DNA of 64,000 nt from Candidatus Aenigmatarchaeota archaeon (GTDB lineage Archaea > Aenigmatarchaeota > Aenigmatarchaeia > QMZP01), in NCBI GenBank assembly GCA_043824495.1, contig JBDRSV010000024.1, positions 91,056 through 155,055 on the forward strand, given 5' to 3'. The notes beneath the pieces were generated by a model. That model searched no databases. It was not told the DNA's origin and saw nothing but the letters and a program-made list of their open reading frames with translations. Below are positions 1 to 57,032 of this stretch, in pieces. Position numbers and translations under genes: made by a program. Within the stretch, counting starts at the first letter, position 1, and every line of letters starts with the position of its first letter.

Positions 1-767
1 TTTTCTATCCCAACCACTTTTCTATGCTGGGCGACATCCAAGTAAAAGGCGCCGTAAATGCTATTCCGAAAACGGCTACAGCAGAAATTTGGGTGGCATA
101 TCTCGATTCGAACGGAATCGAAGAGAGACTACGTCCCATCAGATCCGAGCTGAAAAAGGAATTTGCATCAAGCGATTCCAATCTCGCGATCATATTCAGG
201 TCTAGTTCTCGGACTGAGTTTATGGCAGACGAAGTGGCGCATGATGTGATCAATTTTCTCCTGGAGATGCCAGACGGTGTCATTAGCATGTCACTTGATC
301 TGGAGGATGTTCCATACACATCCTCGAATGTTGGAGTCGTGAAAATCGAAAACGACTCTCTGGTTGTGGAAATATTGTCCCGATCCTTCTCTGATGACGA
401 TCTTTCCTGTATGAAAATGGAGATCGATCGCATCTGCCAGAGTCACAGTGCCACTGTAGAGTTCCCTGTAGAATCTTCAGGTTGGGAACCAAACCCTGAC
501 TCATATCTCCTTCAGGTCGCGCAAAAAACATGGGGTGAATGCGTTGGTGAGAATCTCAAACTTGTGGCAGTTCACGCAGGGTTGGAAGCTGGCGCAATTC
601 AAAACCGATGTGAAATCCTGTTTCCTAACAGGATAATGGACGTCATCTCACTTGGCCCCCAAATCGAGAAATCACACACATCAGATGAGAGAGCGTCCAT
701 CACATCCGTCGTCCAACTCTACAATTTCATGAAAGTTTTCGTGCTCGAATTGGTACATGAAAACTGA
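1..767 (+). CDS. pepD: M20-family aminoacyl-histidine dipeptidase (PepD-like), C-terminal part; 5' end outside window
   Basis: Frame is open from nt 3 to the stop at 767. C-terminal HAGLEAGAI...SLGPQIEKSHTSDERASITSV resembles PepD/M20C. Confidence 0.55.
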   Translation, partial: FYPNHFSMLGDIQVKGAVNAIPKTATAEIWVAYLDSNGIEERLRPIRSELKKEFASSDSNLAIIFRSSSRTEFMADEVAHDVINFLLEMPDGVISMSLDLEDVPYTSSNVGVVKIENDSLVVEILSRSFSDDDLSCMKMEIDRICQSHSATVEFPVESSGWEPNPDSYLLQVAQKTWGECVGENLKLVAVHAGLEAGAIQNRCEILFPNRIMDVISLGPQIEKSHTSDERASITSVVQLYNFMKVFVLELVHEN

Positions 768-876
768 TTGAGGTCTGTAGTGAATCACGTAGAAAAAAAG
801 GAACAGAAGAGAATGTTAATTTTTTCAAATCAAGCAGCGAACAACAAAGTTCGCTCAGAAAACTGAGGTGATTTTC

Positions 877-2388
877 ATGACTCAACAGGAAGCCCTCACA
901 AGGCTTACAAAACTCTGGGGAAAGGCTGCACTTCTCGATTCTTGTGGCCAGCTTCTGGGATGGGACGAACGAGTTTACATGCCCAGAAAGGGTGCAAAAC
1001 ATCGCGCAGATCAGCTTGCCATGGTGGCGGGAATGGTGCATGAACTCCAGGTTGATCCCAGAATCGGTGATCTTCTGGGTGCAATCAGCGGAAGTGATCT
1101 GGTTCGCGACCCGAGTTCAGACGCTGACGTCATCGTCCGCGAAATCGGCCGGGCTCACTACCGGCTGGTGAAAATGCCGCAATCGCTGGTCGAAGAGATC
1201 ACGCGCGTCACTACGCTCGCCCAGGGTGCGTGGGGCGAGGCGCGCGCCAACTCCGACTTCAAGTCGTTCAAGCCATGGCTGGAGAAAGTCATCGCACTGA
1301 AGAAGCAGGAAGCCGAAGCCGTCGGGTACAAAGACGATCCATACGATGCCATGCTCGATGTTTACGAGCCGGGCGCAACGGTCACCTCAATCGACGAGAT
1401 CTTCGCCAAGAACCGTGAAGAACTCGTGATGCTCCTCGATAAGATCAAAGGCTCGGGCAAAGGCCCCGACACCACGATCATCACCCGTGAATATCCAATC
1501 GAAGCACAGAAGACATTCGGTCACGAGGGCGCTGCCGCAATCGGTTTCGACTTCGAGCGCGGTCGTCTCGATATCACGACCCACCCCTTTTGCGCCGGCA
1601 TCGGCCCCGGCGATACGCGCATCACCACTCGTTACGATGTCCATCATTTCCCCGGCGCGTTCTTCGGTATACTGCACGAGGCCGGACACGGTATCTACGA
1701 CCAATGTCTGCCCGATGACAAGTTTGGCAGTCCGCTGGGTGAGTATATCTCGCTCGGTATCCACGAGTCGCAGTCGCGCATGTGGGAAAATATGGTCGGA
1801 CGCTCACGCGCCTTCTGGACACGCATGTATCCCAAAGCGCAGAAGGCATTCCCCAAAGCGTTAGGCGATGTTCCGGTTGACGCGTTCTATTGGGCGATCA
1901 ACGACGTCCGTCCGTCGTTCATCCGTGTCGAAGCCGACGAGGCCACTTACAACCTGCACATTCTGCTGCGTTTCGAAATGGAGCGCGCGTTCTTCTCGGG
2001 TGACTTGAAGGTCGATGACATCCCGGGCGCCTGGAACGAGAAATTCAAATCATACTTCGGCATCACCCCGCCCAATGACGCGCAGGGCTGCATGCAGGAC
2101 GTTCACTGGAGCGCGGGACTGGTTGGCTATTTCCCGACCTACGCACTTGGCAATCTCTACTCTGCGCAGTTCTTCGCCAAAGCCAACGAGGATCTCGGCG
2201 ACCTCCACGCCCAATTCGCCAAGGGCGAGTTCGCACCGCTGAAGAAGTGGCTGCAAGACAACATCCACAGCCACGGCCGCCGCTATCTCGCATGCGAGCT
2301 GGTCGAACGTGTCACCGGCAAGCCGCTCGGCTCCGAAGCGGTGATGGCGTACATGAACAAGAAGTTCGGTGAACTCTACGGCTTCTGA
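877..2388 (+). CDS. Carboxypeptidase Taq-type metallocarboxypeptidase (peptidase family M32)
   Basis: HEAGHG (HExxH), HESQSR and DVHWS...GYFPTYALG motifs. GAGG lies 9 nt upstream of ATG 877 (the track ORF starts at GTG 868). Confidence 0.9.
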   Translation: MTQQEALTRLTKLWGKAALLDSCGQLLGWDERVYMPRKGAKHRADQLAMVAGMVHELQVDPRIGDLLGAISGSDLVRDPSSDADVIVREIGRAHYRLVKMPQSLVEEITRVTTLAQGAWGEARANSDFKSFKPWLEKVIALKKQEAEAVGYKDDPYDAMLDVYEPGATVTSIDEIFAKNREELVMLLDKIKGSGKGPDTTIITREYPIEAQKTFGHEGAAAIGFDFERGRLDITTHPFCAGIGPGDTRITTRYDVHHFPGAFFGILHEAGHGIYDQCLPDDKFGSPLGEYISLGIHESQSRMWENMVGRSRAFWTRMYPKAQKAFPKALGDVPVDAFYWAINDVRPSFIRVEADEATYNLHILLRFEMERAFFSGDLKVDDIPGAWNEKFKSYFGITPPNDAQGCMQDVHWSAGLVGYFPTYALGNLYSAQFFAKANEDLGDLHAQFAKGEFAPLKKWLQDNIHSHGRRYLACELVERVTGKPLGSEAVMAYMNKKFGELYGF

Positions 2389-2539
2389 GAAGTACAATAC
2401 ACCGAATAAACCAGAGTCACTAAAACCCGATAACCTTTAATCCCAGTGGCTAGTAGTGTCGGTCGCTGGGCTGTGGTTCGAGGGAGTTCGCCACAAGAGG
2501 CTCGATGTTCAAGGAGACTGGACTCGAAAGGTTGACAAC

Positions 2540-2947
2540 ATGATGAGACGCATGATTTTCTTGTTGCTGTCGCTTCTGCTGGTGATCAGTTGCTCAGACT
2601 CGGATACTTCAGACGGTTTCTTCCCAAGTCTTGACGAGCAGTATGCTCAGGGTCTGGGAATGTCTTCTGACAAACCATTTCAGGGATTTTATGATCTTAG
2701 TAGTGGATGCAAGATCATACCTGGTGGTCATGTCGAAATTTGCTGCAGAATCCAAGGCGGTCTTAGTCTGGCTGTCAAGGACGCAGTGAATCGCTCCGAT
2801 CGACTAAAAATAGAATTCGGTGGTATCGAGAGCGTCTTATTCGAATCTGGTCAGACAGAAGACACCTTGCGATTGACGGCGATTTCCGAAAAACACCGCG
2901 AGAAAAGGTTGTACATTGTGGTGGTGAACAGTGCTGTGGGGACATAG
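2540..2947 (+). CDS. Putative lipoprotein
   Basis: MMRRMIFLLLSLLLVISC is a signal peptide with a lipobox-like Cys. Start chosen at the in-frame ATG 2540. Confidence 0.5.
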   Translation: MMRRMIFLLLSLLLVISCSDSDTSDGFFPSLDEQYAQGLGMSSDKPFQGFYDLSSGCKIIPGGHVEICCRIQGGLSLAVKDAVNRSDRLKIEFGGIESVLFESGQTEDTLRLTAISEKHREKRLYIVVVNSAVGT

Positions 2948-2964
2948 GTTCTCGCCGCGAATCC

Positions 2965-3004
2965 AAACAGGTATTCAAGAAGAGTCAATTCCTTCTGCCT
3001 GTTT
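2965..3004 (+). terminator. Hairpin terminator after the last gene of block I1
   Basis: AAACAGG (2965-2971) pairs with CCTGTTT (2998-3004), with an inner AGAAG/CTTCT pairing, followed by TTTTTAATTT. Confidence 0.55.
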
Positions 3005-3009
3005 TTAAT

Positions 3010-3030
3010 TTGTCTAATTAAAGGGATATA
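3010..3030 (-). repeat. Junction motif copy a (reverse complement TATATCCCTTTAATTAGACAA)
   Basis: Read directly from the sequence. GC-rich block on the left, AT-rich r-protein operon on the right. Confidence 0.9.
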
Positions 3031-3110
3031 GAAAGAAAAAATTAGAAATGTTCAGACATATAAACCTTATAAACTATAATGCTCAATAATTGGTATAATT
3101 CGAAAGGAAA

Positions 3111-3458
3111 ATGACATATATGAAAGCTAAGACAGATATTGGGGTTGGTTTGAAGCCACCTGAGCATAAATGTGAAGAAGAAAACTGTGCATGGCACGGG
3201 AAATTGCCTGTCAGAGGCAGAGTGTTTAGAGGTAGAGTTAGGGCCGCTAAATCTCAGAAAACAGCTATAATCGACTGGGGATTCCATAGATTCGTGCCTA
3301 AATACGAGAGATATGAGAGAAGAAAATCAAGAGTGACTGTTCATAATCCTGGCTGTATGAATGCTAAAGAAGGGGATAATGTTGTAATAGCAGAATGCAG
3401 ACCAATTTCAAAGACAAAGCACTTTGTAATTGTTGGTGTGCAAAAGGAAGGAAAATAA
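3111..3458 (+). CDS. rps17: 30S ribosomal protein S17
   Basis: KCEEENCAWHGKLPVRGRVFRGRV...TVHNPGCMNAKEGDNVVIAECRPISKTK is archaeal S17-like. Operon context. Confidence 0.9.
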   Translation: MTYMKAKTDIGVGLKPPEHKCEEENCAWHGKLPVRGRVFRGRVRAAKSQKTAIIDWGFHRFVPKYERYERRKSRVTVHNPGCMNAKEGDNVVIAECRPISKTKHFVIVGVQKEGK

Positions 3459-3459
3459 T

Positions 3460-3858
3460 ATGAAAGCGATATCAGCCAATATGACAAGGTGTTTGCCTGT
3501 GGGAGCAAGAATTAATTGTGTAGATAATTCAGGAGCAAAAATAATTAGAATAATTTCTGTAAGAGGATTTAAAGGTATACGAAGAACAATTCCTTCAACT
3601 GGTATTGCTGGTTTATTCCAGTGTAAAGTACTCAAAGGAAATGAGAAAGTTCGACATCTGGTTCATAAAGCTGTTATTGTAAGACAAACAAAAGAATTCA
3701 GAAGAGCAGACGGAACAAGAGTGTCATTCGAAGATAATGCAGCTGTATTAGTGGATGACAAAGGGGATCCAAAGGGTAATAGCATCAAGGGTCCTATTGC
3801 AAGGGAAGTTGTTGAGAGATTCCCAACAATTGGTAAGATTGCAAGCACAGTAGTTTAA
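3460..3858 (+). CDS. rpl14: 50S ribosomal protein L14
   Basis: INCVDNSGAKIIRIISV... is L14-like. Start at ATG 3460 just after the S17 stop. Confidence 0.9.
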   Translation: MKAISANMTRCLPVGARINCVDNSGAKIIRIISVRGFKGIRRTIPSTGIAGLFQCKVLKGNEKVRHLVHKAVIVRQTKEFRRADGTRVSFEDNAAVLVDDKGDPKGNSIKGPIAREVVERFPTIGKIASTVV

Positions 3859-4211
3859 TGGTGACTGACATGACAGATAACATAGATTTCAGTGAATTCC
3901 AAAAAGTTAATATAAGAATAGGAACAATTGAAGCAGCTGAGCCTGTTGAGAACACAGAAAAGCTGTTGAGGCTTCAAATAAGTTTAGGCGAAGAGAAGAG
4001 ACAAATTGTTTCTAGTATAGCAAAGGATTTCACACCTGATCAACTCATTGGTAAGCAAATACCAATACTTACCAACCTGGAGCCAAAAAGTTTCAGAGGA
4101 ATTGAAAGTCAGGGTATGATCTTACTGGTCGTAGAGGAACAAGATGGTTCAGAAAAGCTCACATTAATAACGCCTGAAAATAAAGTTCCTACAGGATCTA
4201 CAGTCAGGTAA
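3858..4211 (+). CDS. tRNA-binding domain protein (Trbp111/CsaA/MetRS-C-like)
   Basis: FQKVNIRIGTIEAAEP...KLLRLQISLGEEKRQIVSSI...NLEPKSFRGIESQGMILL matches the OB-fold tRNA-binding domain pattern. Confidence 0.7.
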   Translation: MVTDMTDNIDFSEFQKVNIRIGTIEAAEPVENTEKLLRLQISLGEEKRQIVSSIAKDFTPDQLIGKQIPILTNLEPKSFRGIESQGMILLVVEEQDGSEKLTLITPENKVPTGSTVR

Positions 4212-4216
4212 GAGTA

Positions 4217-4561
4217 ATGTCAAAAAAGAGAACAGTTGCAATATTGGTGGGGATATTAATGTTGTTATTGGTATTCCTGGTCGTACTACCGCTATCATTC
4301 GACTCTTCATTGGGAGCTGACTCATTACCTGATTCAGCTTTTTATGAAATTGAATTAGCAGGTGAGAACATAGCATGTGGTATATCACTTGATAGAAAAG
4401 CATGTTTGCTTGAACTTGCTAATGAAAGAGACCAAGAAGTGGAAGAGTTAAATATAAAACAAAGAAGATTATTCGATGAAGATGAAAAGCAACAGTATGA
4501 ATTGCTCATAATTAAAACTGAAAACGCAGCTTCGAGATTAAGAATCGAGGCACTAAAATAG
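4217..4561 (+). CDS. Hypothetical membrane-anchored protein
   Basis: N-terminal TM helix (VAILVGILMLLLVFLVVLPL) with a charged, coiled-coil-like C-terminus. Confidence 0.5.
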   Translation: MSKKRTVAILVGILMLLLVFLVVLPLSFDSSLGADSLPDSAFYEIELAGENIACGISLDRKACLLELANERDQEVEELNIKQRRLFDEDEKQQYELLIIKTENAASRLRIEALK

Positions 4562-4569
4562 GAGATCAA

Positions 4570-5094
4570 ATGAAACAGACATGGTCTAAAGACTGGTTGA
4601 GTTCAAAACAACCAAGAAAGCAAAGGAAATATAGAGCTAATGCACCGCTCCATATTAGACGTAAGTTTATTTCTGCACACTTGAGTGAAGATTTGAGAAG
4701 ACAATTCAGTAGAAGAGCATTCCCTCTAAGAAAAGGTGATCAAGTAGAAATTATGAGAGGTAGCTTCAGAGGTAAGAAAGGTCAGGTAACTCGAGTAAAC
4801 TTGTCAAAAAGTAAAGTTTACGTTGAAGGTGTAAACGTGAAAAAAGTGGATGGATCTGAAGTTGCAAGAGGAATCCAACCTTCCAACATTAGAATAATCA
4901 GTCTGAACCTTGACGATAAAAAGAGAAGAATCGCTGTAGACAGAACAAGAGACCAGAAAAAATCTGTAAAAGAAACAGTCAAAGAAGTGAAAACAGAAAA
5001 AGAAACAAAACCGGTAGCTAAACCAGATAAATCAAAAGTTCCAGCGAAAGAAGCTAAAACCACTCCTAAAAAATTAACAAAGGAAGGGAAATGA
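4570..5094 (+). CDS. rpl24: 50S ribosomal protein L24 with Lys-rich C-terminal extension
   Basis: KQPRKQRKYRANAPLHIRRKF...KGDQVEIMRGSFRGKKGQV (KOW motif). Operon position. Confidence 0.9.
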   Translation: MKQTWSKDWLSSKQPRKQRKYRANAPLHIRRKFISAHLSEDLRRQFSRRAFPLRKGDQVEIMRGSFRGKKGQVTRVNLSKSKVYVEGVNVKKVDGSEVARGIQPSNIRIISLNLDDKKRRIAVDRTRDQKKSVKETVKEVKTEKETKPVAKPDKSKVPAKEAKTTPKKLTKEGK

Positions 5095-5135
5095 GTTACT
5101 TTATGCTTAAATAGTTAATAATTAAGAGGTTTGAT

Positions 5136-5846
5136 ATGTCACATTTAAAGAGATACGCGATGCCAAGGAACTGGCCAGTTGAGGTCAAGAAGAAAATTTT
5201 TATAGTTAGACCTATGCCTGGGCCTCATGCTATAAATAGATGCATACCTCTAAAAATTCTGATTAAAGATTCTCTAGACTATGCAGATACATCAAGAGAA
5301 GCAAAGAAAATTATCACATCAGGAAAAGTTAAAGTTGATGGTGTGATAAGAAGAGATGTTAAGTTTCCTGTGGGATTGATGGATGTTATAGAATTGCCTG
5401 ATGCAAAGGAAGCTTATAGAGTTGTTCTCAATAGAAGAGGAATAATATTGAAGAAGATAAAATCTGATTCTGATAAGAAATTATGTTTAATCAAAAACAA
5501 AGTGAGTGTTAAAAAAGGACATTTTCAACTAAATCTTCATGACGGTAGAAATATACTCCTAAAAACAGGAGCTGACGCTTACAAAACAGGCGATTCCATT
5601 GTTATCCAACTTTCTGATAATAAAATACTCAAGCACTACAAACTAGAAAAAGGAGTACCAGCTTTCATATACGCAGGAAAGAATATGGGTGTCTCAGGAA
5701 CAATAAAGGAAATCAAAAAGAAGAAAACAATGGTAGAGAAATCTGTTATTATATTTAAGACTGATGAAAAAGAAATGGAAACCCTTAAGGGTTACGTTTT
5801 CCCAGGTTACTTGGATTTGGGTGAATCTGGAAAGGAGAGTAAATGA
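5136..5846 (+). CDS. rps4e: 30S ribosomal protein S4e
   Basis: MSHLKRYAMPRNWPV...GPHA... is S4e-like. Operon position. Confidence 0.9.
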   Translation: MSHLKRYAMPRNWPVEVKKKIFIVRPMPGPHAINRCIPLKILIKDSLDYADTSREAKKIITSGKVKVDGVIRRDVKFPVGLMDVIELPDAKEAYRVVLNRRGIILKKIKSDSDKKLCLIKNKVSVKKGHFQLNLHDGRNILLKTGADAYKTGDSIVIQLSDNKILKHYKLEKGVPAFIYAGKNMGVSGTIKEIKKKKTMVEKSVIIFKTDEKEMETLKGYVFPGYLDLGESGKESK

Positions 5847-6352
5847 CAGAAAACCCAATGAGACAGATAAGAATAGAGAAGGTCACTGTAAACATGGGAG
5901 CAGGTGAAGCCGGAGCTAAGTTAGATAATTCTGTTAAGCTTATTGAAAAATTAACAGGAGCTAAAATTGTTATTACAAAAACACATAAAAGAACCACATT
6001 CGGTGGACCAAAGAAAAAACCTATTGGAGCCAAAACAACTCTAAGAGGTAAAAAAGCTGAAGAATTCTTAGAGCTAATGTTAAAAGCTGTTGAAAATAAA
6101 TTAAGAAAAAAACAATTTGATGTTAATGGAAATTTCTCTTTTGGTATAAAAGAATACATTGATATACCAGGTGTCAAATACGATCCAGATATTGGAATTA
6201 TGGGAATGGATATCTGTGTAACATTACAAAGACCTGGATATAGAGTTAAGAATAGAAAAATAAATCAAAGAAAGATTGGGATGAAACACAACATTAAAAA
6301 AGAGGACTCCATGGAATTCATGAAAACTAGATTTAAGGTAGAGGTAGTTTAG
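5843..6352 (+). CDS. rpl5: 50S ribosomal protein L5
   Basis: NPMRQIRIEKVTVNMGAGEAG...FGIKEYIDIPGVKYDPDIGIMGMD. Confidence 0.9.
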   Translation: MTENPMRQIRIEKVTVNMGAGEAGAKLDNSVKLIEKLTGAKIVITKTHKRTTFGGPKKKPIGAKTTLRGKKAEEFLELMLKAVENKLRKKQFDVNGNFSFGIKEYIDIPGVKYDPDIGIMGMDICVTLQRPGYRVKNRKINQRKIGMKHNIKKEDSMEFMKTRFKVEVV

Positions 6353-6574
6353 ATGTCATTTTTAAAAGTTAGAAAACAGATAGAGAAAAAACCTATCAAG
6401 GTTGCAAGATATGATAAATTTAACAAACCAAAAAAGAGAAAATTCGGAAAAAATATTCATAGATGCGCAAAATGTAACAGAACAGGCGGGATGATAAATA
6501 AGTACGATTTACATTATTGTAGACAGTGCTTCAGAGAACAAGCAGAAAAATTAGGATTTGTAAAATATAGTTAG
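6353..6574 (+). CDS. rps14: 30S ribosomal protein S14 (zinc-binding type)
   Basis: CAKCNRTGGMINKYDLHYCRQCFRE with CxxC...CxxC. Operon position. Confidence 0.85.
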   Translation: MSFLKVRKQIEKKPIKVARYDKFNKPKKRKFGKNIHRCAKCNRTGGMINKYDLHYCRQCFREQAEKLGFVKYS

Positions 6575-6582
6575 GAGTTAAT

Positions 6583-6969
6583 ATGAGACACGATTTAATT
6601 TCAGATGCATTATGCATAATAAAAAACGCAGAATTCATTGGTAAAAAGGAGTGTAAGGTTCCTGTGTCTAAGTTAATTAAAGGTATGTTGACAATCATAA
6701 AAACCAATGAATACATTAAGGATTTCAAGTTAACACATGAAGAGAAAGGAGATTATTTTCATGTTCATCTTGCAGGTAAAATAAATGATTGTAATTCTAT
6801 TAGACCACAATACTCATTCCAAGTAAAAGACGTTGTTAAATGGGAAAAAAGATTCCTTCCAGCAAGAGAGATAGGAATTTTAATTATTACCACATCAAAG
6901 GGCATAATGGATCAAAGACAAGCAGAAAAAGAAAAATCCGGTGGTAGATTACTGGGTTATGTTTACTAG
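6583..6969 (+). CDS. rps8: 30S ribosomal protein S8
   Basis: DLISDALCIIKNAE...ITTSKGIMDQRQAEKEKSGGRLLGYVY. Confidence 0.9.
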   Translation: MRHDLISDALCIIKNAEFIGKKECKVPVSKLIKGMLTIIKTNEYIKDFKLTHEEKGDYFHVHLAGKINDCNSIRPQYSFQVKDVVKWEKRFLPAREIGILIITTSKGIMDQRQAEKEKSGGRLLGYVY

Positions 6970-6977
6970 GTGATTAT

Positions 6978-7241
6978 ATGATAACAAGCAGAGACATTAA
7001 ACATGCAGAAGAGCAAAAAAAATTGTTGATTGGAACAAAAAGTATAGTGAAATCACTAAAAATCGGGGAACTGGAAAGAGTCATTTATGCTTCTAATTGC
7101 CCAGAATCCACATTGAAGGATATAAATTATTATTTAAAATTAACTAAAACTGAAGTGGAATTATTCGATGGAAATTCTTCAAAACTAGGTGAAACCTGCG
7201 GTAAACCCTTTAATATACTTATGATCGCAATAAAGAAGTAG
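6978..7241 (+). CDS. rpl30e: 50S ribosomal protein L30e
   Basis: LLIGTKSIVKSLKIGELERVIYASNCP...GNSSKLGETCGKPFNILMIAIK. Confidence 0.8.
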   Translation: MITSRDIKHAEEQKKLLIGTKSIVKSLKIGELERVIYASNCPESTLKDINYYLKLTKTEVELFDGNSSKLGETCGKPFNILMIAIKK

Positions 7242-7247
7242 ATAAAT

Positions 7248-7652
7248 ATGCCAATAAAACTAGAAACAATGACAATTAGAACTATTGCAACATTTGAAAA
7301 CGTAACGAACGTTCATGCGGTGGATTGCATAATTGCAGACGATTACATGTGTTTTCTTGTTGATCCTGAAAAAGTTGGCTTAGCAATTGGCAAAAACGGA
7401 TCAACAATAAAACAATTAAGAAAAATGTTTAATAAACAAATAAAAGTGTTCGGTTACTACAGAGATCCAGAATCTCTTGTAAAGGGGGTAATACCCGAAG
7501 TAATTGAAATAGAACAAAATAGTGGAGCTTTGGTAGCTACTCTCCCAAGCGGAGAAAAATTATCTATAATAGAGAAAAACAACAAGAATATTAAGATACT
7601 AAAGGAAATATTAAAGAGACATTTTTCCATCAAGACATTAAAACTCAGATAA
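7248..7652 (+). CDS. nusA: Archaeal NusA-like KH-domain protein
   Basis: KVGLAIGKNGSTIKQLRKMF (KH GxxG). Sits in the L30e-NusA-S12-S7 context typical of archaea. Confidence 0.8.
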   Translation: MPIKLETMTIRTIATFENVTNVHAVDCIIADDYMCFLVDPEKVGLAIGKNGSTIKQLRKMFNKQIKVFGYYRDPESLVKGVIPEVIEIEQNSGALVATLPSGEKLSIIEKNNKNIKILKEILKRHFSIKTLKLR

Positions 7653-7657
7653 GATAT

Positions 7658-8287
7658 ATGATTCAAATGAAAATTAAGATAATAAAAAAATCTGGAAATG
7701 ACCTTGAATTCACAGCTGAAAACATCAGTATACCTTTAGCAAATGCACTTAGAAGGATAATGATTTCTGAAGTGCCAACATTATCAGTTGACTGGATTGA
7801 TATTCATAATAATACATCTGTTTTGTTTGATGAGATGATATCTCACAGAATTGGTTTAATTCCAATAAAATTCAACCCTGATAAATTTAACTTTATAGAT
7901 GATTGTAAATGTGAAGGCAAAGGATGTACATTGTGTCAAGCAGTGTTCTCAGTGACCAAGAAAGGTCCATGTATTGTTTATTCGGGGGACATGAAACCTG
8001 CAAACAAAGAAGCAATTTTCACAGATCCTAAATTCCCTATAGTTGAACTTCTAGAAAATCAAGAAATCAAACTAGATGCTATTGCAAGACTTGGAATAGG
8101 ACAAAATCACTCAAAGAATCAAGCAGCTATAGCAGCATATGAATATGATGGTGACGGAAAAGCATTGAAATTTAAATTTAAGATAGAGTCTGTATCAGGT
8201 TTGAAACCTGATTACATTGTTGAAAAAGCAGCACATATATTAGAATTAAAAGCAGCGGAATTTAAGAAGGAAGTCAATAAGATATGA
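7658..8287 (+). CDS. rpoD: DNA-directed RNA polymerase subunit D (Rpo3)
   Basis: IPLANALRRIMISEVPTLSVDWIDIHNNTSVLFDEMISHRIGLIPI, with a Cys cluster CKCEGKGCTLC. Confidence 0.85.
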   Translation: MIQMKIKIIKKSGNDLEFTAENISIPLANALRRIMISEVPTLSVDWIDIHNNTSVLFDEMISHRIGLIPIKFNPDKFNFIDDCKCEGKGCTLCQAVFSVTKKGPCIVYSGDMKPANKEAIFTDPKFPIVELLENQEIKLDAIARLGIGQNHSKNQAAIAAYEYDGDGKALKFKFKIESVSGLKPDYIVEKAAHILELKAAEFKKEVNKI

Positions 8288-8496
8288 GCGCTCAATTGGT
8301 TGTATCCTGGATCCTTGGTAGCATATTCATGCTAGGAGGGGTATGGATAATAACAAACCTCGAGATGAATCTTGGGGTGACCGAGTCCTCTTATATTGTC
8401 GCTCTTATTATAGCATTTATCATGTTCCTTCTAGCTGGTTTCCTATGGATTTCGGTTGCCGTGGGTACAGAAAAACAGCCGCATCACCACCATTAA
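8284..8496 (+). CDS. Small two-TM membrane protein ending in HHHH
   Basis: Two hydrophobic helices. ATGA overlap with the rpoD stop. GC is higher than in neighbouring genes. Confidence 0.4.
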   Translation: MSAQLVVSWILGSIFMLGGVWIITNLEMNLGVTESSYIVALIIAFIMFLLAGFLWISVAVGTEKQPHHHH

Positions 8497-8606
8497 TTCC
8501 GAAATGAGCTATTCCTGCATTTATAAATATTTATATCAATAAGAACCAATATACTCACAAAATCTATATAAATCCTTGAGCTGAATAAGCTCATACAAGT
8601 GATATC

Positions 8607-9029
8607 ATGGGACAATTTGGAGCACGAGAATTAAAGAAAAAGAGGAAAAAGTTTAGATGGAAATCTACAAAACACAAGAGACATCAGCTAAAATTATGGA
8701 AGAAATCACCTCTTAGAGGAGCTCCTATCGGAAAAGGTATAGTTCTTAAGAAGAAGGGTATTGAACAAAAACAGCCACATTCTGGTATTATTAAAGCTGT
8801 CAGAGTACAGATAGTTAAAAACGGTATTAATGTTACAGCATTTGTACCAAAAACAGGTGCAATCAAGCATATAGACGAGCATGACGAAGTAACAATAGAA
8901 GGAATGGGCGGATCTCAGGGTGGAGCTGTCGGTTCTATGCACGGTATCAAGTTTAAGGTTTTCAAGGTGAATAATATTTCTTTGAAAGAAATTCTAAAGG
9001 GGAAAAAACAGAAGTCTAAGGGCGGTTAA
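8607..9029 (+). CDS. rps12: 30S ribosomal protein S12
   Basis: [40 protein letters not shown] is S12-like. Confidence 0.9.
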
Positions 9030-9031
9030 TT

Positions 9032-9622
9032 ATGTCAATATTACTTTTTAATAGATGGGATACGAGCAAAGTTGAAGTCCAAGATCCTAGTCTTAAGAGA
9101 TATGTTAATTTGGAACCTGTTATAGTACCTAGAACTAACGGTAAAATGAGAGGTCAGCACAAATATAAAGTTAATATAGTTGAAAGATTCACAAACAGAC
9201 TCATGGTTAATGGCCATAGAGGAAAAAAACATAAAATCACATCAGGTCATCATGTTGGAAATACAGCAACACTTTTCAATCACATGAAAGCTGCTTTCAC
9301 AGAAATAGAAAACAAGACAAAGAAAGATCCTGTGCAAGTTCTTGTACACGCAATAGAGAATTCTTCAGTAGTTGAAGAGGTTGCTTCTTACAGAATGGGT
9401 GGCATAATGGCTAGAAAAGCTGTTGTAGTGTCTCCTCAGAGAAGGCTAGACCTAGCATTAAGATACCTCACGCAAGGAATCTACAAGAAGAGCTTCAAAA
9501 ACAGGCAACCTCTCTCAAGAGTCATCGCAGATGAGCTCATAGCTGCTGCTAACAACGACACAAAAGTCTTCGCAATCCAAGAGAAAAACAGAATAGAAAG
9601 AGAAGCCGAAGGCGCTAGATAA
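9032..9622 (+). CDS. rps7: 30S ribosomal protein S7
   Basis: NIVERFTNRLMVNGHRGKKHKITSG...VASYRMGG...AIQEKNRIEREAEGAR. Confidence 0.9.
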   Translation: MSILLFNRWDTSKVEVQDPSLKRYVNLEPVIVPRTNGKMRGQHKYKVNIVERFTNRLMVNGHRGKKHKITSGHHVGNTATLFNHMKAAFTEIENKTKKDPVQVLVHAIENSSVVEEVASYRMGGIMARKAVVVSPQRRLDLALRYLTQGIYKKSFKNRQPLSRVIADELIAAANNDTKVFAIQEKNRIEREAEGAR

Positions 9623-9708
9623 TTTTAATGTGCTATTTTTAGTGTCAGTAATTTCGTATAACAGGTAGCTCACACTACTTTTTTCTAAAAATAAAAGAAA
9701 TTGGGTAT

Positions 9709-10134
9709 TTACCCAATGTAATTAGCTTGTCCTGCACCTTGAGGTTTCAAGACTGGGATACCTATTGGTGGTGGTAGCTGTAAATCGTCAGCCATGTAAG
9801 CTATCTTTAGAAGACATCTCCTGAATAAGTGATTCAAGATTTCTATGTTTATTTCTTCTGGTAATTTTTTGTCTTTTTTCCAAGCTTTCATTACTATTGC
9901 TAGTGTTTTTGGAAGATAGATAACTTCTCCGCCTACCTTGATGTCGGCCAAATCAGGTGCATATTTTGTCTCAAACTCGAATGTTACGGACATTCCTTTT
10001 TTGTTAAGTGTTCCGATGTTTACTTCTTTTACACCTATGATTTTTGGTGTTGAGTTTACTTTAATTTCACCCTTAATTGGCTTTGGTTTTTTATTTGCCT
10101 CAAATGAGGTAAATGCGAGTCCTATGATTGGCAT
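9709..10134 (-). CDS. Hypothetical protein
   Basis: 141 aa ORF with backbone composition and no family I can name. A faint SecB-like pattern was not relied on. Confidence 0.45.
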   Translation of the reverse strand: MPIIGLAFTSFEANKKPKPIKGEIKVNSTPKIIGVKEVNIGTLNKKGMSVTFEFETKYAPDLADIKVGGEVIYLPKTLAIVMKAWKKDKKLPEEINIEILNHLFRRCLLKIAYMADDLQLPPPIGIPVLKPQGAGQANYIG

Positions 10135-10248
10135 ACTAATCTCCTTAATATTATGTATACTATTACATATTGTTATTTAAATGCATATTATGCTCTCATT
10201 TACGAATATTTCTTCATATATTTATATTTCCGTACACAAATCTATACT

Positions 10249-10782
10249 ATGAATATTCTCATACCAATGGCAGAGGGCTTTGAGGAAATAGAAGCTATTA
10301 CAGTTATAGATGTTTTCAGGAGAGCTGGAATCAATACTATCAGCGTCGGTCTTCCTGGTACAATGGTCACAGGAGCTCACGGCATCAAAGTTTTTGCTGA
10401 TAAGAGACTTGATGAAGTGAATATAGACGATTTTGATGCTCTTGTTCTTGTTGGTGGAGATCCTGGATACCACAATCTAGGTAAATCACAGAAGATAATA
10501 GAAGCCATCAAGAGGTTTGAAGCAGCAAAGAAACCTGTAGGAGCTATATGTACTGCGCCAGCTATTCTAGGTAAGCTAGGTCTACTAGACGAAAGAAGAG
10601 CAACAATATATCCCGGAATGGAGAGAGAGATACCAAGACCAAGAGGAAACAGAGTCATAGACGATGATAATATAATAACATCACAAGGACCTGGAACAGC
10701 TATGGAATTTGCTATCCAGATTGTGGATAAACTCAAGGGTCCTTCAATAGCGGGTAAGGTAAGAAGGGAACTGGTGGCTTAA
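10249..10782 (+). CDS. DJ-1/PfpI (ThiJ) family protein
   Basis: MNILIPMAEGFEEIEAITVIDVFRRAGI...FDALVLVGG...AICTAP has the nucleophile-elbow Cys. Start moved to ATG 10249. Confidence 0.85.
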   Translation: MNILIPMAEGFEEIEAITVIDVFRRAGINTISVGLPGTMVTGAHGIKVFADKRLDEVNIDDFDALVLVGGDPGYHNLGKSQKIIEAIKRFEAAKKPVGAICTAPAILGKLGLLDERRATIYPGMEREIPRPRGNRVIDDDNIITSQGPGTAMEFAIQIVDKLKGPSIAGKVRRELVA

Positions 10783-11007
10783 ATGAGCGGATTAACTGCA
10801 GCCGAGAAAGAAATTCTAGAAATAATGTCAAAGAGACTTTTAGTAACAACAAGAGAGTTGAACAAATTCTTGAGCTCTGATAAATACAATGGAGGAACTG
10901 ATTTTAGTTTACAGAGACTTGTAGATCAAGGATACTTAGAAAGAGTAGAATCCTTAGGGACAACTGTTGTTGTAACTCAGAAAGGCTTGAGAGCTCTAAA
11001 AGCTTGA
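10783..11007 (+). CDS. Small winged-helix DNA-binding protein
   Basis: 74 aa; LLVTTRELNKFL...LQRLVDQGYLERV is wHTH-like. The start abuts the upstream stop. Confidence 0.5.
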   Translation: MSGLTAAEKEILEIMSKRLLVTTRELNKFLSSDKYNGGTDFSLQRLVDQGYLERVESLGTTVVVTQKGLRALKA

Positions 11008-11070
11008 GTAAAGATCTTTTTATAGTAAAATGACATATATAGAAGTACTTCGATCGAATGATCTTAGAAT

Positions 11071-11234
11071 AGCCCCGTAGTGTAGTGGTCAAAGTTTGAC
11101 AACCTGTGTGCTCGCATGTAGTTGTCTACACGACTAGGCATATCGGGCCTTGGTTTTCGCAACTAAGGATCTGAGCGAGAAATCGCTGTGAAAGAGGATA
11201 CCCGGTGACTGCGGTTCGAATCCGCACGGGGCTA
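11071..11234 (+). tRNA. Intron-containing tRNA, tentatively tRNA-Gln(UUG), with two putative introns (11093-11137 and 11154-11199)
   Basis: The 5' AGCCCCG-TA-GTGT-AGTGGTCAA and 3' TGCGG-TTCGAAT-CCGCA-CGGGGCT-A give acceptor (A1:U72), D and T arms. Removing the two inserts leaves a 73-nt cloverleaf with anticodon loop CCUUGGA. Confidence 0.6.
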
Positions 11235-11266
11235 TCATTTTTATTGTATACTTACAATTATTTCTT

Positions 11267-12952: not shown

Positions 12953-13083
12953 AGTGATTAAACGGTAAGCATAATCAAGCTAATAGCACTTATTATAATT
13001 ATTTATTTAGTAGTTTCTATTTTCCAATGTTACTGGCCTGCGAGTATGCTTGAAGAAGTCTTATGTATTTATGGTCCACTATT

Positions 13084-13614
13084 CTAGACACTATTCCACA
13101 ATCTCTGAATTAGTTGATTCATTGTAATCTTTTTCTGGAACAGTTCTTTTACATCATTCTTTTCAATCTGCACTCTTATCTGTGCCTTATTCTCTAAATC
13201 ATTCTTATAAGATTCAACTCTTGCAACTAACTCTGGTTTTATCGCTTCATTTTCAGCTTCTACTGCAAATTTTCTTACAAAAGAAGCATCCATAGCTAAA
13301 AGATCATTTGCAATTCGTTCTCTGTAAAGAGACTTAACCATTTTTGTTATTGTAGCTGCTTTTTCTACAGTAGCTGAATCAGATGCTTTCTGTACCACAA
13401 AAGCTTCTACACTCCCTGCACTAACAGGAACAGCTTCTTCTATACCTAAAGTATCTCTGTAAATACTCTCTTTCTGTGCAGATGTTGTAGCTTGATGTTT
13501 TATTACATCAGATGATCTTATGTCTACTAGAGCAAATCTTCCAGAAGCTTGTACAAGAGACATTGATAAAACTAACAAAATTCCAATTATCATCAAAGTT
13601 AATTTATAGTTCAT
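13084..13614 (-). CDS. Hypothetical secreted protein
   Basis: N-terminal signal/TM MNYKLTLMIIGILLVLSMSLVQA. Confidence 0.5.
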   Translation of the reverse strand: MNYKLTLMIIGILLVLSMSLVQASGRFALVDIRSSDVIKHQATTSAQKESIYRDTLGIEEAVPVSAGSVEAFVVQKASDSATVEKAATITKMVKSLYRERIANDLLAMDASFVRKFAVEAENEAIKPELVARVESYKNDLENKAQIRVQIEKNDVKELFQKKITMNQLIQRLWNSV

Positions 13615-14410: not shown

Positions 14411-14475
14411 ACATGAAAGTTAATTTTTGCCTACTTAAATATGACCTGGGGGAAGGGTTCCCCAGGTATATAATT

Positions 14476-15171: not shown

Positions 15172-15240
15172 ACCCCCTTGACATCACCAAGGAATGAACA
15201 GGATATAAAGACCATACCGAACAAAAGTGAACAATCATGT

Positions 15241-15264
15241 TATATCCCTCTAATTAGACAATAT
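15241..15264 (+). repeat. Junction motif copy b (TATATCCCTCTAATTAGACAATAT)
   Basis: Read directly from the sequence. AT-rich on the left, GC-richer block I2 on the right. Confidence 0.9.
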
Positions 15265-15267
15265 AAA

Positions 15268-15298
15268 ACAATCAGGTGCCGAGTGCACACCTAATTGT
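15268..15298 (-). terminator. Imperfect hairpin downstream of the last gene of block I2
   Basis: ACAATCAGGTG (15268-15278) pairs with CACCTAATTGT (15288-15298) with one mismatch. On the gene strand it is followed by TTTATATT. Confidence 0.5.
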
Positions 15299-15315
15299 CC
15301 TTGCCAATCCTCTTC

Positions 15316-16422: not shown

Positions 16423-16489
16423 GGCGAAAATCTCCTTCTCGTTGTATTTCTTTGTTTATAGTTATCGTCCTAGAATTAATTCAAAACAA

Positions 16490-17041: not shown

Positions 17042-17221
17042 TCTCGTTAATTGACATTTCTGTCTTTCGTTGTCGTAGAGTATTGATTCCTAAATTACAG
17101 ATGATGACTTTACCTCGAACAAGAATCTTGTGCCAGGTGCTAAAAGTTGTCAGCGATGATAAATGTGGAACATGATGCATAGAATTTAACCTAAAATTTT
17201 ATAAACCTATACAAAACCTTT

Positions 17222-17244: not shown

Positions 17245-17249
17245 ATAGT

Positions 17250-17639: not shown

Positions 17640-17659
17640 TTATTTTTTTTATCAGTTAT

Positions 17660-17681
17660 TATATCCCTTTAAATGGACAAT
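17660..17681 (+). repeat. Junction motif copy d (TATATCCCTTTAAATGGACAAT)
   Basis: Read directly from the sequence. A T-run lies upstream and GC-rich block I3 lies downstream. Confidence 0.9.
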
Positions 17682-17686
17682 GCAAA

Positions 17687-19629: not shown

Positions 19630-20175
19630 GGATTTTTATTCCTTAGGTTGTGAGGGAAATATGACCCTCCGGGTTTGTTTTTCGATTAGTTTCTGATTGT
19701 TTGTCGTTTACCACGTTTCCAAGTTAAGGTCCGCGAATCGCTATTTTCATTGGCATCCTCTCTTTGGGTTAATGTTGTCCGCACAAATTGCGGGATTAAA
19801 AGAAGGAAAGACACAAAAGATAGAGTATGTCTTATGTAGACTGAGAGTAAAATCATTCGAAGAATAAAGCTAATACTATTAAAACAAACATGCATGTTTG
19901 ATGTGTTTCTTTTCATGTTTTTTGTGTTAGCCAATGTACCGTTTCTATGGTTAATTGGATTGATTGAGTTGCAATCAATACAAATTTAAATGATGTTCGA
20001 ATGAGTAGCATGATTTAAATTGTATACAAAAATTGACGTTGATTCATCGTCGTTTTTTTGTGTTTTGGTATTTTTTTTGATTCTAGCTTGTCGCTTTTGT
20101 CAAGTCTTTAACTCAAGTATATAGCTTACAGGTATTTAAATGTTTTCTAACACATTTTTTTTAATTTTCTTTCTT

Positions 20176-20197
20176 TTATCCCTTTAAATAGACATAT
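20176..20197 (+). repeat. Junction motif copy e (TTATCCCTTTAAATAGACATAT)
   Basis: Read directly from the sequence. A T-run lies upstream and GC-rich block I4 lies downstream. Confidence 0.85.
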
Positions 20198-20206
20198 AAA
20201 AAGGCA

Positions 20207-29316: not shown

Positions 29317-29330
29317 TACTGAAGTTCACC

Positions 29331-36279: not shown

Positions 36280-36286
36280 GATTTGT

Positions 36287-36308
36287 ATTGTCTAATTAAA
36301 GGGATATA
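36287..36308 (-). repeat. Junction motif copy f (reverse complement TATATCCCTTTAATTAGACAAT)
   Basis: Read directly from the sequence. GC-rich block on the left, AT-rich DNA on the right. Confidence 0.9.
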
Positions 36309-56966: not shown

Positions 56967-56990
56967 TATATCCCTTTAAATAGACAATAT
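56967..56990 (+). repeat. Junction motif copy g (TATATCCCTTTAAATAGACAATAT)
   Basis: Read directly from the sequence. VanZ stop plus a T-run on the left, GC-rich block I6 on the right. Confidence 0.9.
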
Positions 56991-56991
56991 A

Positions 56992-57032
56992 AAGGGGAAA
57001 GTGTGATTGGTGGTCACACTTTTTCTCCCCTT
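56992..57032 (-). terminator. Hairpin downstream of the last gene of block I6
   Basis: AAGGGGAAAGTGTGA (56992-57006) pairs with TCACACTTTTTCTCCCCTT (57014-57032), with bulges. Confidence 0.55.

Follow-up and report, generated by a model that had tools for sequence, protein, structure and literature searches.

A GC-rich peptidase block within an Aenigmatarchaeota ribosomal-protein cluster, probably one of at least seven acquired cassettes closed by a common 27-nt motif

In the ribosomal-protein gene cluster of an Aenigmatarchaeota (DPANN) archaeon, the GC-rich peptidase block upstream of S17 (block A) is probably a real, lineage-specific insertion, one of at least seven horizontally acquired GC-rich cassettes that are closed by the same 27-mer. 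The stretch analysed here (the window) is a 64,000-nucleotide chromosome piece of a metagenome-assembled genome (MAG) whose backbone has a GC content of 0.34. GC-rich blocks make up 33% of this 64 kb. Two-state GC segmentation separates positions 1-2959 (GC 0.52) from 2960-15272 (~0.35), with sharp edges, and the GC3 of block genes is 0.50-0.70 compared with 0.21-0.32 for backbone genes. The acquisitions are likely to be recent. The sequence evidence for the locus comes from one sequencing run, SRR26275509, at contig level.

A preliminary description of the window proposed that a bacterial-type block replaces the upstream half of the archaeal superoperon, and suggested a search for the upstream ribosomal genes. 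These were found in place: Logan contig SRR26275509_25775, identical to the window across all 16,969 shared nt, reads L2-S19-L22-S3-L29-SUI1-Rpp29-(methyltransferase)-PepD-M32-lipoprotein-motif-S17-L14. The genes from L2 to Rpp29 lie intact just left of the window edge, co-linear with S17 on one strand, and Rpp29 ends 5,001 nt before S17; the appearance of replacement is thus an artefact of that edge. Downstream, the cluster continues as S17-L14-(tRNA-binding protein, 114-aa protein)-L24-S4e-L5-S14-S8-L7Ae-NusA-RpoD-S12-S7. Some 5 kb, comprising block A (~3.9 kb) and the methyltransferase gene, is therefore inserted at the Rpp29/S17 junction, and the cluster flanks are intact on both sides. 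The methyltransferase gene, which lies between Rpp29 and PepD on the opposite strand and has host composition, looks older at this junction than block A.

In each of the 38 related metagenome loci whose upstream sequence extends for at least 1.5 kb, S3-(L29)-SUI1/Rpp29 is found directly 5' of S17, and peptidase genes occur upstream of S17 in none of them. The closest relatives have the derived S8-L7Ae-NusA-S12-S7 order in common with the host and lack block A; the closest of all has a 130-nt AT-rich spacer at Rpp29/S17. At this place, two related contigs that probably represent one population have an unrelated gene of the HAD family on the opposite strand. The Rpp29/S17 junction hence behaves as a unit boundary in the lineage and as a repeated insertion point. 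Relatives with Rpp29 or SUI1 directly before S17 had been put forward as grounds for rejecting the insertion, yet that arrangement represents the ancestral state and not an artefact. The block does break up a string whose genes adjoin one another in all the relatives examined, as had been said, but the surprise at a break in so conserved a string was overstated, since Rpp29/S17 was already a unit boundary.

The components listed beforehand, namely GC-rich PepD, M32 and lipobox genes, a hairpin terminator, a first motif copy (copy a) and an S17 open reading frame starting 80 nt further on, at 3111, are all present (Table 1); 3111 is an alternative to the start chosen by the gene caller. The full PepD-type dipeptidase has 523 aa, starts 805 nt left of the window (locus L016, 2614-4185) and has an N-terminus resembling a signal peptide. 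It matches TIGR01893 (beta-Ala-His dipeptidase, which is also its NCBI name) over residues 46-514 with 377 bits against a cutoff of 343.75; the match to Pfam M20 by itself is weak. Its gene has a GC content of 0.46-0.48 and a GC3 of 0.50. The closest non-self match is a 43% identical paralogue in a different GC-rich block (block G) of the same 171,815-nt contig, and identity to all sequences outside the host genome is at most 37%, so great a divergence that the protein appears not to be assignable to bacteria. The unameliorated GC3 of the blocks needs either very recent transfer or a force maintaining it, yet the two paralogues are just 43% identical.

The M32 carboxypeptidase matches PF02074 with E 3e-178 (593.8 bits against a cutoff of 25.1) over profile positions 2-489 of 489. 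This family is defined by a HEXXH zinc site plus HES, DXRXT, HPF and IRXXAD motifs, and the translation contains HEAGH, IHESQ, DTRIT, THPF and IRVEADE. It shares 72-84% identity with a set of proteins in which almost all named members are bacteria, chiefly Zixibacteria; in the best 120 matches, the self-match aside, the organism names are all bacterial and mainly Zixibacteria. Its GC3 is 0.70, compared with 0.72 and 0.77 for the two closest homologue genes checked, and a homologue at 74% identity lies on a contig of GC 0.59 next to nuo and AlaRS genes. Judged by these matches, the ancestry of M32 is bacterial and Zixibacteria-like. The third protein begins, by inspection, with MMRRM-IFLLLSLLL-VISC, that is, a charged n-region, a hydrophobic h-region and then a [LVI][ASTVI][GAS]C lipobox; the gene caller prefers a GTG at 2456, giving 163 aa. 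It matches no Pfam or NCBIfam family, and among 1.84 billion representatives searched only itself was retrieved. The label "bacterial-type" consequently holds for M32 and not for the too-divergent PepD or the orphan lipoprotein. GC3 within the block is uneven (0.50, 0.70 and 0.52), and the AT-rich spacer between PepD and M32 suggests that block A is itself a mosaic.

Table 1. Features of block A, the S17 junction and the motif copies in the window.
Feature	Position	Strand	Basis or remark
PepD-type M20 dipeptidase, 3' part (254 codons; ORF 3-767)	1..767	+	TIGR01893
Intra-block PepD/M32 spacer, AT-rich, GC 0.36	768..876	.	composition
M32 (Taq-type) carboxypeptidase, 503 aa, intact	877..2388	+	PF02074
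Small lipobox protein, 135 aa from ATG	2540..2947	+	starts MMRRMIFLLLSLLLVISC
Terminator-like hairpin AAACAGG...CCTGTTT running into T-run	~2965..3004	+	folding
Motif copy a, TTTAATTTGTCTAATTAAAGGGATATA, 27 nt, closes block A	3004..3030	+	
Spacer, GC 0.24, TATA-like boxes ATATAAAC and TTATAAAC, GGA-type ribosome-binding site	3031..3119	+	
Ribosomal protein S17, 112 aa	3120..3458	+	gene caller ATG at 3120
Motif copy b, closes block B (15273-17008; two membrane-protein genes, minus strand)	15241..15267	-	
Motif copy c, closes block C (17687-19673)	17660..17686	-	
Motif copy d, closes block D (20203-23775)	20175..20201	-	
Motif copy e, closes block E (27404-36261; ~9 genes)	36282..36308	+	
Motif copy f, closes block F (56994-59064; three genes, minus strand)	56967..56993	-	

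The motif TTGTCTAATTAAAGGGATATA, at 3010-3030, is one of six copies in the window, where none is expected by chance. All seven blocks (the six in the window and block G) finish in a hairpin followed by TTTATATTGTCTAATTAAAGGGATATA, with the motif at the 3' edge in gene orientation; the hairpin is stable at each of the six window copies and at block G. Where an open reading frame precedes, the motif lies 53-79 nt after its stop codon (61 nt for copy a, after the lipoprotein). At the 5' ends of the blocks, no copy occurs at up to 9 mismatches of 27 and no target-site duplication was seen, and the native intergenic regions of the 64 kb hold no motif. Copies b-d make up a direct array (three to four sites, 15241-20201), and the others are solitary, in both orientations. 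Symmetry holds for the outer TTATAT/ATATAA and for the central TAATTA but not between the inner arms, TGTC and CCCT.

The other blocks carry varied cargo. The product of block C is a secreted protein of 624 aa that carries a T9SS-type sorting domain at its C-terminus. Block D has no coding sequence and a high degree of structure, and most genes of block E are without a Pfam family, the one gene searched being an orphan. Block G consists of the PepD paralogue alone, GC-rich and finishing in a hairpin and ATTGTCTATTTAACGGGATATA. Several block proteins thus show envelope features of the bacterial FCB group (the T9SS sorting domain, lipoboxes), for which an archaeal use is not obvious. The cassette and motif layout seen seven times in this genome recurs once in an unrelated Aenigmatarchaeota MAG from another sample, BS750m-G24, where a gene of GC 0.46-0.50 in a genome of GC 0.35 is followed by the same motif.

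Could the blocks be pieces of a GC-rich bacterial genome stitched into an archaeal contig through short common sequences during assembly or binning? The sharp GC steps, the Zixibacteria-type affinity of M32, the bacterial envelope features of the cargo, a 21-27-nt motif at one edge of every block and the dependence on a single run would all be expected of such a chimera. The question, raised in the preliminary description, was a worthwhile one and settles for insertion: a contig from a second assembler crosses both junctions of block A. Two Logan contigs, broken once at 17094-17112 of the window (a point in favour of a chimera), hold every junction of A, C, D, E and F and, for block B, the one at the 3' (motif) end, with no mismatches to the window and no gaps, which makes a chimera unlikely. 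Exact repeats common to motif copies reach at most 21 nt, and none is common to the 5' edges, which leaves an assembler no basis for a cross-over; the Logan k-mer is 31, above that repeat length. Furthermore, block A is bordered on both sides by halves of one archaeal operon, its uneven GC3 is unexpected from a single co-assembled donor, most of the cargo consists of orphans or of very divergent genes, unlike that of a typical co-occurring bacterium, and the same architecture appears in a MAG from another sample. The motif occurs in archaeal MAGs and is missing from those contigs with M32 homologues that were examined; one of these contigs (in four overlapping copies) has a clearly bacterial gene context. 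No alternative contig with the same S17 was found. Taken together, we regard a chimera as very improbable.

As an inserted cassette, block A forms a self-contained transcription unit of foreign composition, with an AT-rich region, a TATA-like box and a leader of ~200 nt upstream of PepD, then three genes, the first for a putatively secreted dipeptidase, the terminator and the 27-nt motif. Its products probably serve to scavenge amino acids from peptides. Aenigmarchaeota are reported to have no amino-acid biosynthesis and to depend on a large number of peptidases (Li et al., 2021, PMC8407114), and peptide scavenging would suit such a lineage. The terminator would halt read-through into S17, in which case S17-L14 would have to be driven from the 116 nt between hairpin and S17. 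The promoter may be the motif itself or the TATA-like boxes after it, and 3031-3119 is a candidate new promoter and leader for S17-L14.

What, then, is the motif? It may be an outward-facing archaeal promoter or insulator, cassette-borne or native, that restarts transcription past an inserted terminator, blocks persisting only where the signal rescues downstream expression. It is AT-rich with TATA-like boxes (TTTATAT, TAATTAAA), and native start codons with ribosome-binding sites follow copies a, b and e at a distance of 69-82 nt; with three of six copies so placed, a promoter role is a live alternative to recombination. A copy in locus L001 lies 41 nt upstream of a Zn-ribbon gene, and a weak copy adjoins the block B leader directly on its 5' side. 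However, copies c and f and the copy in locus L014 point into convergent genes from their 3' ends, the nearest start codon after copy d is 546 nt away, and the tight spacing is to the upstream stop codon and to nothing downstream. Since native intergenic regions are without it, the motif is not the general promoter of the lineage. We consider a transcription signal a possible but rather unlikely reading. In the likeliest reading, the 27-mer marks the 3' boundary of mobile or captured cassettes that form one family, be it as a recombination site or as a cassette-borne element, and it may take part in integration. With neither a 5' motif or duplication nor a recombinase gene among the called genes of the window, the proposed capture has a single defined end. 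At least seven foreign cassettes with a common 27-base tag may point to an undescribed gene-capture mechanism.

The same 3' ends could arise if foreign transcripts that end at their own terminators were reverse-transcribed and integrated beside a 27-mer. Each of the seven blocks closes in a hairpin of terminator type directly adjoining the T-rich beginning of the motif, their 5' ends are undefined, cargo units resemble whole operon transcripts, and block D, in the same orientation, holds 3.5 kb of non-coding, highly structured, RNA-like sequence. This RNA route is wholly inferential, however: the T-run belongs to the conserved motif and not demonstrably to the cargo, a separate origin is needed for the promoter and leader modules, rich in AT, that precede the blocks, and the called genes, which cover nearly all of the window, include no reverse transcriptase, recombinase or integrase. 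It seems extremely unlikely.

Among known systems, archaeal integrons, documented in lineages including Aenigmatarchaeota, whose attC sites are reported to have restricted diversity, and proposed as a cross-domain transfer route (Ghaly et al., 2022, PMC9668308), are alike in the 3' hairpin site co-oriented with the ORF, in the foreign composition and, for copies b-d only, in the short direct arrays, and cross-domain transfer is suggested here too. The blocks could then be gene cassettes, each hairpin and motif an attC of an integrase-less cluster (CALIN). Differently from integrons, inspection of the six aligned and folded copies revealed no RYYYAAC/GTTRRRY (R''/R') core pair around the hairpins, conservation is confined to the 27-nt block outside the stem and does not involve the stem ends, several cassettes measure 4-9 kb and hold more than one gene together with promoters and long leaders of their own, and the copies, in both orientations, are spread across a distance of more than 54 kb. 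Neither an IntI gene nor any tyrosine-recombinase Pfam family occurs among the called genes, which cover nearly all of the window (up to ~44,750 and from ~48,130) and the 5 kb upstream. An integron origin is accordingly judged highly unlikely.

Xer-dependent elements include IMEX, which use dif, and the pdif modules of Acinetobacter plasmids. These resemble the present case in a site of ~28 bp with partial dyad symmetry and an AT-rich centre (TTATAT...TAATTA...ATATAA), in unrelated cargo modules bounded by site copies and in tandem accumulation at one place. Here each block has a single good site, symmetry is lacking between the inner arms, many copies lie on one chromosome and no Xer gene was identified; a pdif-type module with sites at both ends was rejected because no 5' copy exists at up to 9/27 mismatches. 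IS6/IS26 translocatable units also form cargo arrays parted by a repeated element, and a gene for an IS6/IS1-type transposase N-terminus (Zn-ribbon and helix-turn-helix; ORF 17250-17639) lies between two motif copies; a homologue in another archaeal MAG adjoins a motif copy too. That ORF matches positions 2-52 of 202 of the IS6 model only, and an IS6 element was rejected since a DDE domain, an IS-length repeat, terminal inverted repeats and 8-bp target duplications are all lacking. The motif does not fit canonical integron attC sites, dif or IS6 ends.

The insertion point recalls the natural break between S10-like and spc-like units, falling precisely at Rpp29/S17, where relatives have a spacer or other genes. 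The junction here differs in holding 5 kb that include a terminator, so that the cluster halves are no longer co-transcribable. Finally, bacterial genes and genomic islands have been laterally acquired in DPANN archaea (Castelle et al., 2021, PMC8204110; Li et al., 2021, PMC8407114). The blocks are alike in their atypical composition, in their small symbiotic archaeal host, in the bacterial ancestry of at least one gene (M32) and in accessory functions that are mostly secreted or membrane-bound, the peptidases fitting the reported peptide recycling. They differ from such islands in that most of the cargo consists of orphans or extremely divergent genes and is not recognisably bacterial, and in that they occupy one third of 64 kb, each closed by the same 27-nt element.

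The upstream half of the ribosomal protein operon lies intact just left of the window edge. This flank was reached by an exact-protein look-up with S8, which led to a 22,374-nt Logan contig (SRR26275509_25775, hereafter L016) from run SRR26275509. The contig is identical to the window at all 16,969 common bases and provides 5.3 kb more on the left. With the start of the Logan contig reached by a second look-up, the gene order reads (L23?)-L2-S19-L22-S3-L29-SUI1-Rpp29, a methyltransferase, and then PepD-M32-lipoprotein-S17-L14. The methyltransferase is a class I enzyme encoded on the opposite strand at the Rpp29-S17 junction (L016 1648-2325, GC 0.35). From the end of Rpp29 to S17 there are 5,001 nt, and the GC-rich part of this interval covers roughly 3.9 kb (~L016 2450-6380). 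The preliminary description had the peptidase genes replacing the upstream half of the operon, which is wrong, since L2 to Rpp29 are in place; it suggested that the upstream genes be sought elsewhere, and L2-S19-L22-S3-L29 were found close by, on the same contig. Because these genes precede the PepD, M32 and lipoprotein genes (block A), the latter are an insertion between two intact halves, and the apparent replacement is an effect of the window edge.

A metagenome scan with S17 as query gave 78 related loci, 38 of which have at least 1.5 kb of upstream sequence. In all 38, S3-(L29)-SUI1/Rpp29 lies directly 5' of S17, and none of them has a peptidase gene. In nearly all loci with Rpp29 and S17 both detected, at most ~130 nt separate the two genes; the nearest relative has a 130-nt AT-rich spacer there. 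The closest relatives (58-66% S17 identity) have the derived order S8-L7Ae-NusA-(RpoD)-S12-S7 in common with this genome; they are of the same lineage, and block A is nevertheless missing from them. The S8 to S7 fusion (6978-9622 in the window; also in the compared loci L017, L019 and L024-L026) stands where L6 to SecY are usual and, being shared with the closest relatives, is a lineage trait. Between L14 and L24, a gene for a tRNA-binding domain (MetRS C-terminal/CsaA-like) and a 114-aa orphan gene, both within 3858-4561, were found only in this genome. A look-up for an empty-site variant, with the same S17 and block A absent, found no second contig.

The loci L024 (6042-6671) and L025, probably from one population, carry an unrelated opposite-strand gene for a HAD-family hydrolase between Rpp29 and S17. 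The opposite-strand gene at this position therefore differs among relatives, which points to the junction as a recurrent insertion spot. The surprise expressed earlier at a break in so conserved a gene string was overstated: because the junction already acts as a boundary in relatives, the insertion is less disruptive than had been supposed. The apparent loss of half a conserved operon becomes a clean, dated insertion of ~5 kb, absent from the relatives examined.

The features described earlier for positions 1-3111 (peptidases, lipobox, terminator, motif and S17) were correct and were all found again. The PepD-type M20 dipeptidase is represented in the window by its last 254 codons; the full protein has 523 aa and scores 377 bits against NCBIfam TIGR01893 (cutoff 343.75). 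The M32 carboxypeptidase is complete (PF02074, E 3e-178), with HEAGH, HESQ, DTRIT, HPF and IRVEAD motifs in its translation, and the small third protein begins MMRRMIFLLLSLLLVISC, a lipobox. A TAG stop codon (2945-2947) is followed by a hairpin (AAACAGG...CCTGTTT) with a T-run directly after it and by motif copy a (core at 3010-3030). A spacer of 80-89 nt (GC 0.24) then leads to S17, with an ORF open from 3111 and ATG 3120 chosen by the gene caller. GC3 is 0.50 in PepD, 0.70 in M32 and 0.52 in the lipoprotein gene; the M32 value resembles those of the two closest homologue genes checked (0.72 and 0.77) and is remote from the backbone range (0.21-0.32). Given this unevenness and the low GC (0.36) of the PepD-M32 spacer, block A is itself a mosaic and not a slice from one donor genome.

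The M32 protein has a self-hit of 100% identity in a Candidatus Aenigmatarchaeota MAG, encoded on a contig of 171,815 nt, and the next-best matches have 84%, 81% and 74% identity. Among the best 120 matches, all organism names except that of the self-hit are bacterial, mostly Zixibacteria (at most 72% identity), and the 74% homologue has nuo and AlaRS genes as neighbours on a contig of GC 0.59. For PepD the closest non-self match, a paralogue with 43% identity, comes from this 171.8-kb contig as well, all others reaching at most 37%, and the lipoprotein had no homologue among 1.84 billion representatives. A secreted dipeptidase and a carboxypeptidase may together serve peptide scavenging, which fits the reported lack of amino-acid biosynthesis in Aenigmarchaeota and their dependence on peptidases (PMC8407114).

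A two-state GC segmentation of the window distinguished a backbone of GC 0.30-0.35 from six blocks of GC 0.47-0.53, which jointly occupy 33% of the 64 kb.

GC-rich blocks of the window, with their limits.
Feature	Position (nt)	Genes	Basis
Block A	1-2959	three, plus strand	GC segmentation
Block B	15273-17008		GC segmentation
Block C	17687-19673		GC segmentation
Block D	20203-23775		GC segmentation
Block E	27404-36261		GC segmentation
Block F	56994-59064		GC segmentation

The window has no tRNA genes, either as integration targets or as cargo, and no Rfam match at gathering thresholds; on the compared contig L101, Rfam gave just two sub-threshold matches, at chance level. Block E (8.9 kb) holds about nine same-strand genes, most without a Pfam family, with internal repeats 5' of genes (28206/32723, 29328/30239, 31971/32607) and, at the end, a small gene with an FHA domain. 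For its largest protein (663 aa), a word-seeded search among 5.8 billion proteins gave no match but the protein itself. Two cargo proteins have a bacterial flavour: a 624-aa secreted protein with a T9SS-type C-terminal sorting domain (Por_Secre_tail/FlgD_ig), encoded at 17755-19629 (minus strand), and one of 300 aa, encoded at 58128-59030 (minus strand), which has a signal peptide but falls into no Pfam or NCBIfam family. At 47035-49560 (minus strand), a myo-inositol-1-phosphate synthase gene is split by an intein that includes a LAGLIDADG homing-endonuclease domain.

Block D extends over 3.5 kb (GC 0.50), and its longest ORF, whatever the frame, does not exceed 142 codons. Its 3-base periodicity score is 1.3, whereas individual coding genes that were tested scored 14-29; decayed coding sequence is ruled out by this lack of periodicity and by 35-59 stop codons per frame. 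Nothing in Rfam matched the block even at E<=1. Four ~900-nt pieces of the minus strand gave folding z-scores of -9.6, -6.4, -4.9 and -2.3 against shuffled controls, and in the one piece for which both strands were folded, the minus strand was favoured by ~80 kcal/mol. At its 3' end the block has a hairpin and motif copy d, as in the coding cassettes. Block D is a candidate for a very large structured RNA.

The element that closes the blocks is conserved over ~27 nt (TTTATATTGTCTAATTAAAGGGATATA). Six copies (a-f, for blocks A-F) were observed in the window, with none expected by chance, and each of them lies at the 3' boundary of its GC-rich block and has the same orientation as the genes there. 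The motif follows the preceding ORF at 53-79 nt, and a stable hairpin lies directly 5' of each copy, the hairpin sequences being unrelated to one another. Outside the window, a paralogue of PepD on a separate Logan contig of the same genome forms a single-gene block of GC 0.48 (block G), which closes with a hairpin and ATTGTCTATTTAACGGGATATA and is a seventh case.

The 5' edges of the blocks show no common motif and no target duplication. The 5' regions of blocks B and G are 82% identical over 140 nt, and the region before PepD in block A resembles them marginally (nhmmer E 8e-4); this type of module is not present in blocks C-F. The module is AT-rich, ~140 nt long and contains a GAACAAG...CTTGTTC hairpin (17061-17199, minus strand; 177-314 in L101; 4226-4430 in the compared contig L100). 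A consensus structure from the three 5'-module sequences gave no information. In blocks A, B and G alike, the module comes after a TATA-like box that lies ~200 nt before the start codon, and it may supply some cassettes with a common promoter and leader.

Motif copies b and e (15240-15267 and 36282-36309) form a 28-nt inverted pair, 93% complementary, around 21 kb, with no target duplication seen at the pair. They enclose blocks B-E, a Zn-ribbon gene and a low-GC gene for a HerA/DUF87-type ATPase (23950-25992), which has a weak match to T4SS coupling protein. The stretch between the two copies could be one large composite element.

Could these junctions have been created by the assembler? The locus data all come from one run, and the Logan contigs break once, at 17094-17112 within the block B leader, in the 5' module. 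However, two Logan contigs equal the window exactly at the junctions of blocks A, C, D, E and F and at the 3' (motif) junction of block B. The longest exact repeat between motif copies is 21 nt, and the 5' edges are without any repeat; Logan k-mers are 31 nt, longer than the 21-nt motif repeat. Furthermore, two halves of one archaeal operon bracket block A, orphans and very divergent sequences make up much of the cargo, unlike contamination from a co-occurring bacterium, and the same architecture occurs again in another sample. A chimeric assembly is thus very improbable. A repeat shared by blocks B and G was considered as the cause of the Logan break and was not established, the longest exact shared stretch being ~18 nt. 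The preliminary description had left insertion and chimera as alternatives: judged on assembled contigs from one run, real insertion of a foreign block is strongly favoured. A sharp GC step with bacterial-looking genes in a DPANN contig need not imply misassembly.

In a genome-collection scan, an exact 19-mer pattern of the motif had 14 matches, about the chance expectation. The six archaeal matches, two of them in named Aenigmatarchaeota, have a hairpin just 5' of the motif; because only these six show the hairpin context, the bacterial matches were discounted. In MAG BS750m-G24 (GC 0.35), a gene of GC 0.46-0.50 is followed by the motif, which is also present in archaeal MAGs of GC 0.51-0.62. 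Given its presence in the latter, the motif would seem to be a feature of the archaeal lineage rather than of bacterial donors. No copy was found in the M32-homologue contigs examined, one of which has a clearly bacterial gene context, in the 78 S17-related metagenome loci of DPANN type at up to 4 mismatches, or in viral contigs. When the blocks were compared at the DNA level with the other archaeal motif loci, the motif was the only shared sequence. In L009, a locus of an archaeal MAG of GC 0.58, motif and hairpin lie within a 1.7-kb ORF-poor insert (3624-5348) that parts the pyruvate dehydrogenase E1-beta gene from the E2 gene; here too, an insertion with non-coding cargo may have split an operon.

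Many bacterial-type genes are found in DPANN archaea. Taken by itself, block A is a neat but ordinary example of a gene block acquired horizontally at an operon boundary. Its value for follow-up lies in its membership of a family of seven identically tagged cassettes, one with a 3.5-kb non-coding cargo of extreme predicted structure. Foreign sequence makes up one third of the 64 kb, every foreign unit carries the same short end-tag, and the tag is seen again in other Aenigmatarchaeota MAGs of very different GC content. Should it be the mark of a recombination or capture mechanism, the way in which genes cross between domains into these symbionts could be tested directly. The cargo, with its secreted peptidases, its envelope proteins and a giant structured RNA, may hint at what such organisms obtain from their neighbours.

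How would such a unit work within an operon? The foreign unit between Rpp29 and S17 is self-contained and closes with a terminator-like hairpin and T-run. Read-through from the upstream operon half would end there, and S17-L14 would be restarted from the 116 nt after the hairpin, either by the motif or by TATA-like boxes at ~3058-3075. Promoter or insulator activity of the 27-mer would suit three of the six copies in the window; the remaining three do not fit.

A gene for a Zn-ribbon and helix-turn-helix (HTH) protein (17250-17639, plus strand, low GC, without a DDE domain) is flanked by a weak motif copy (17221-17247) and copy c. The protein is similar to the IS1/IS1595 zinc domain and to the N-terminal ~55 residues of the IS6 transposase model, and no related solved structures were found. 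A 44%-identical homologue in an unrelated archaeal MAG (L001 1478-1891) begins 41 nt past a motif copy. The position of the gene beside motif copies in two MAGs is suggestive, nothing more; the protein could bind the motif.

A tentative and rather unlikely reading is that Aenigmatarchaeota possess an undescribed cassette capture of their own, in which chromosomal foreign transcription units each end with a variable hairpin and the 27-nt element, block A, in the ribosomal-protein cluster, being one of them. Bacterial genes, orphan envelope proteins and a 3.5-kb, highly structured non-coding RNA would be among the captured cargo. The capture enzyme would lie outside the integron, Xer and DDE systems known so far, and the IS6-like Zn-ribbon/HTH protein might act as site-binding factor.

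Among known systems, integrons are documented in archaea (PMC9668308). Like attC, the 27-mer is placed where a cassette-borne site would be. In contrast, its copies are without core and inverse-core sequences, the blocks are multigene units with their own leaders, and no integrase gene is encoded in the window. The 27-mer shares partial dyad symmetry with dif, whereas it occurs at only one end of each block. The likeness to IS6 is that a protein with a Zn-ribbon and HTH of IS6/IS1 type, lacking the catalytic domain, is encoded between two copies of the motif.
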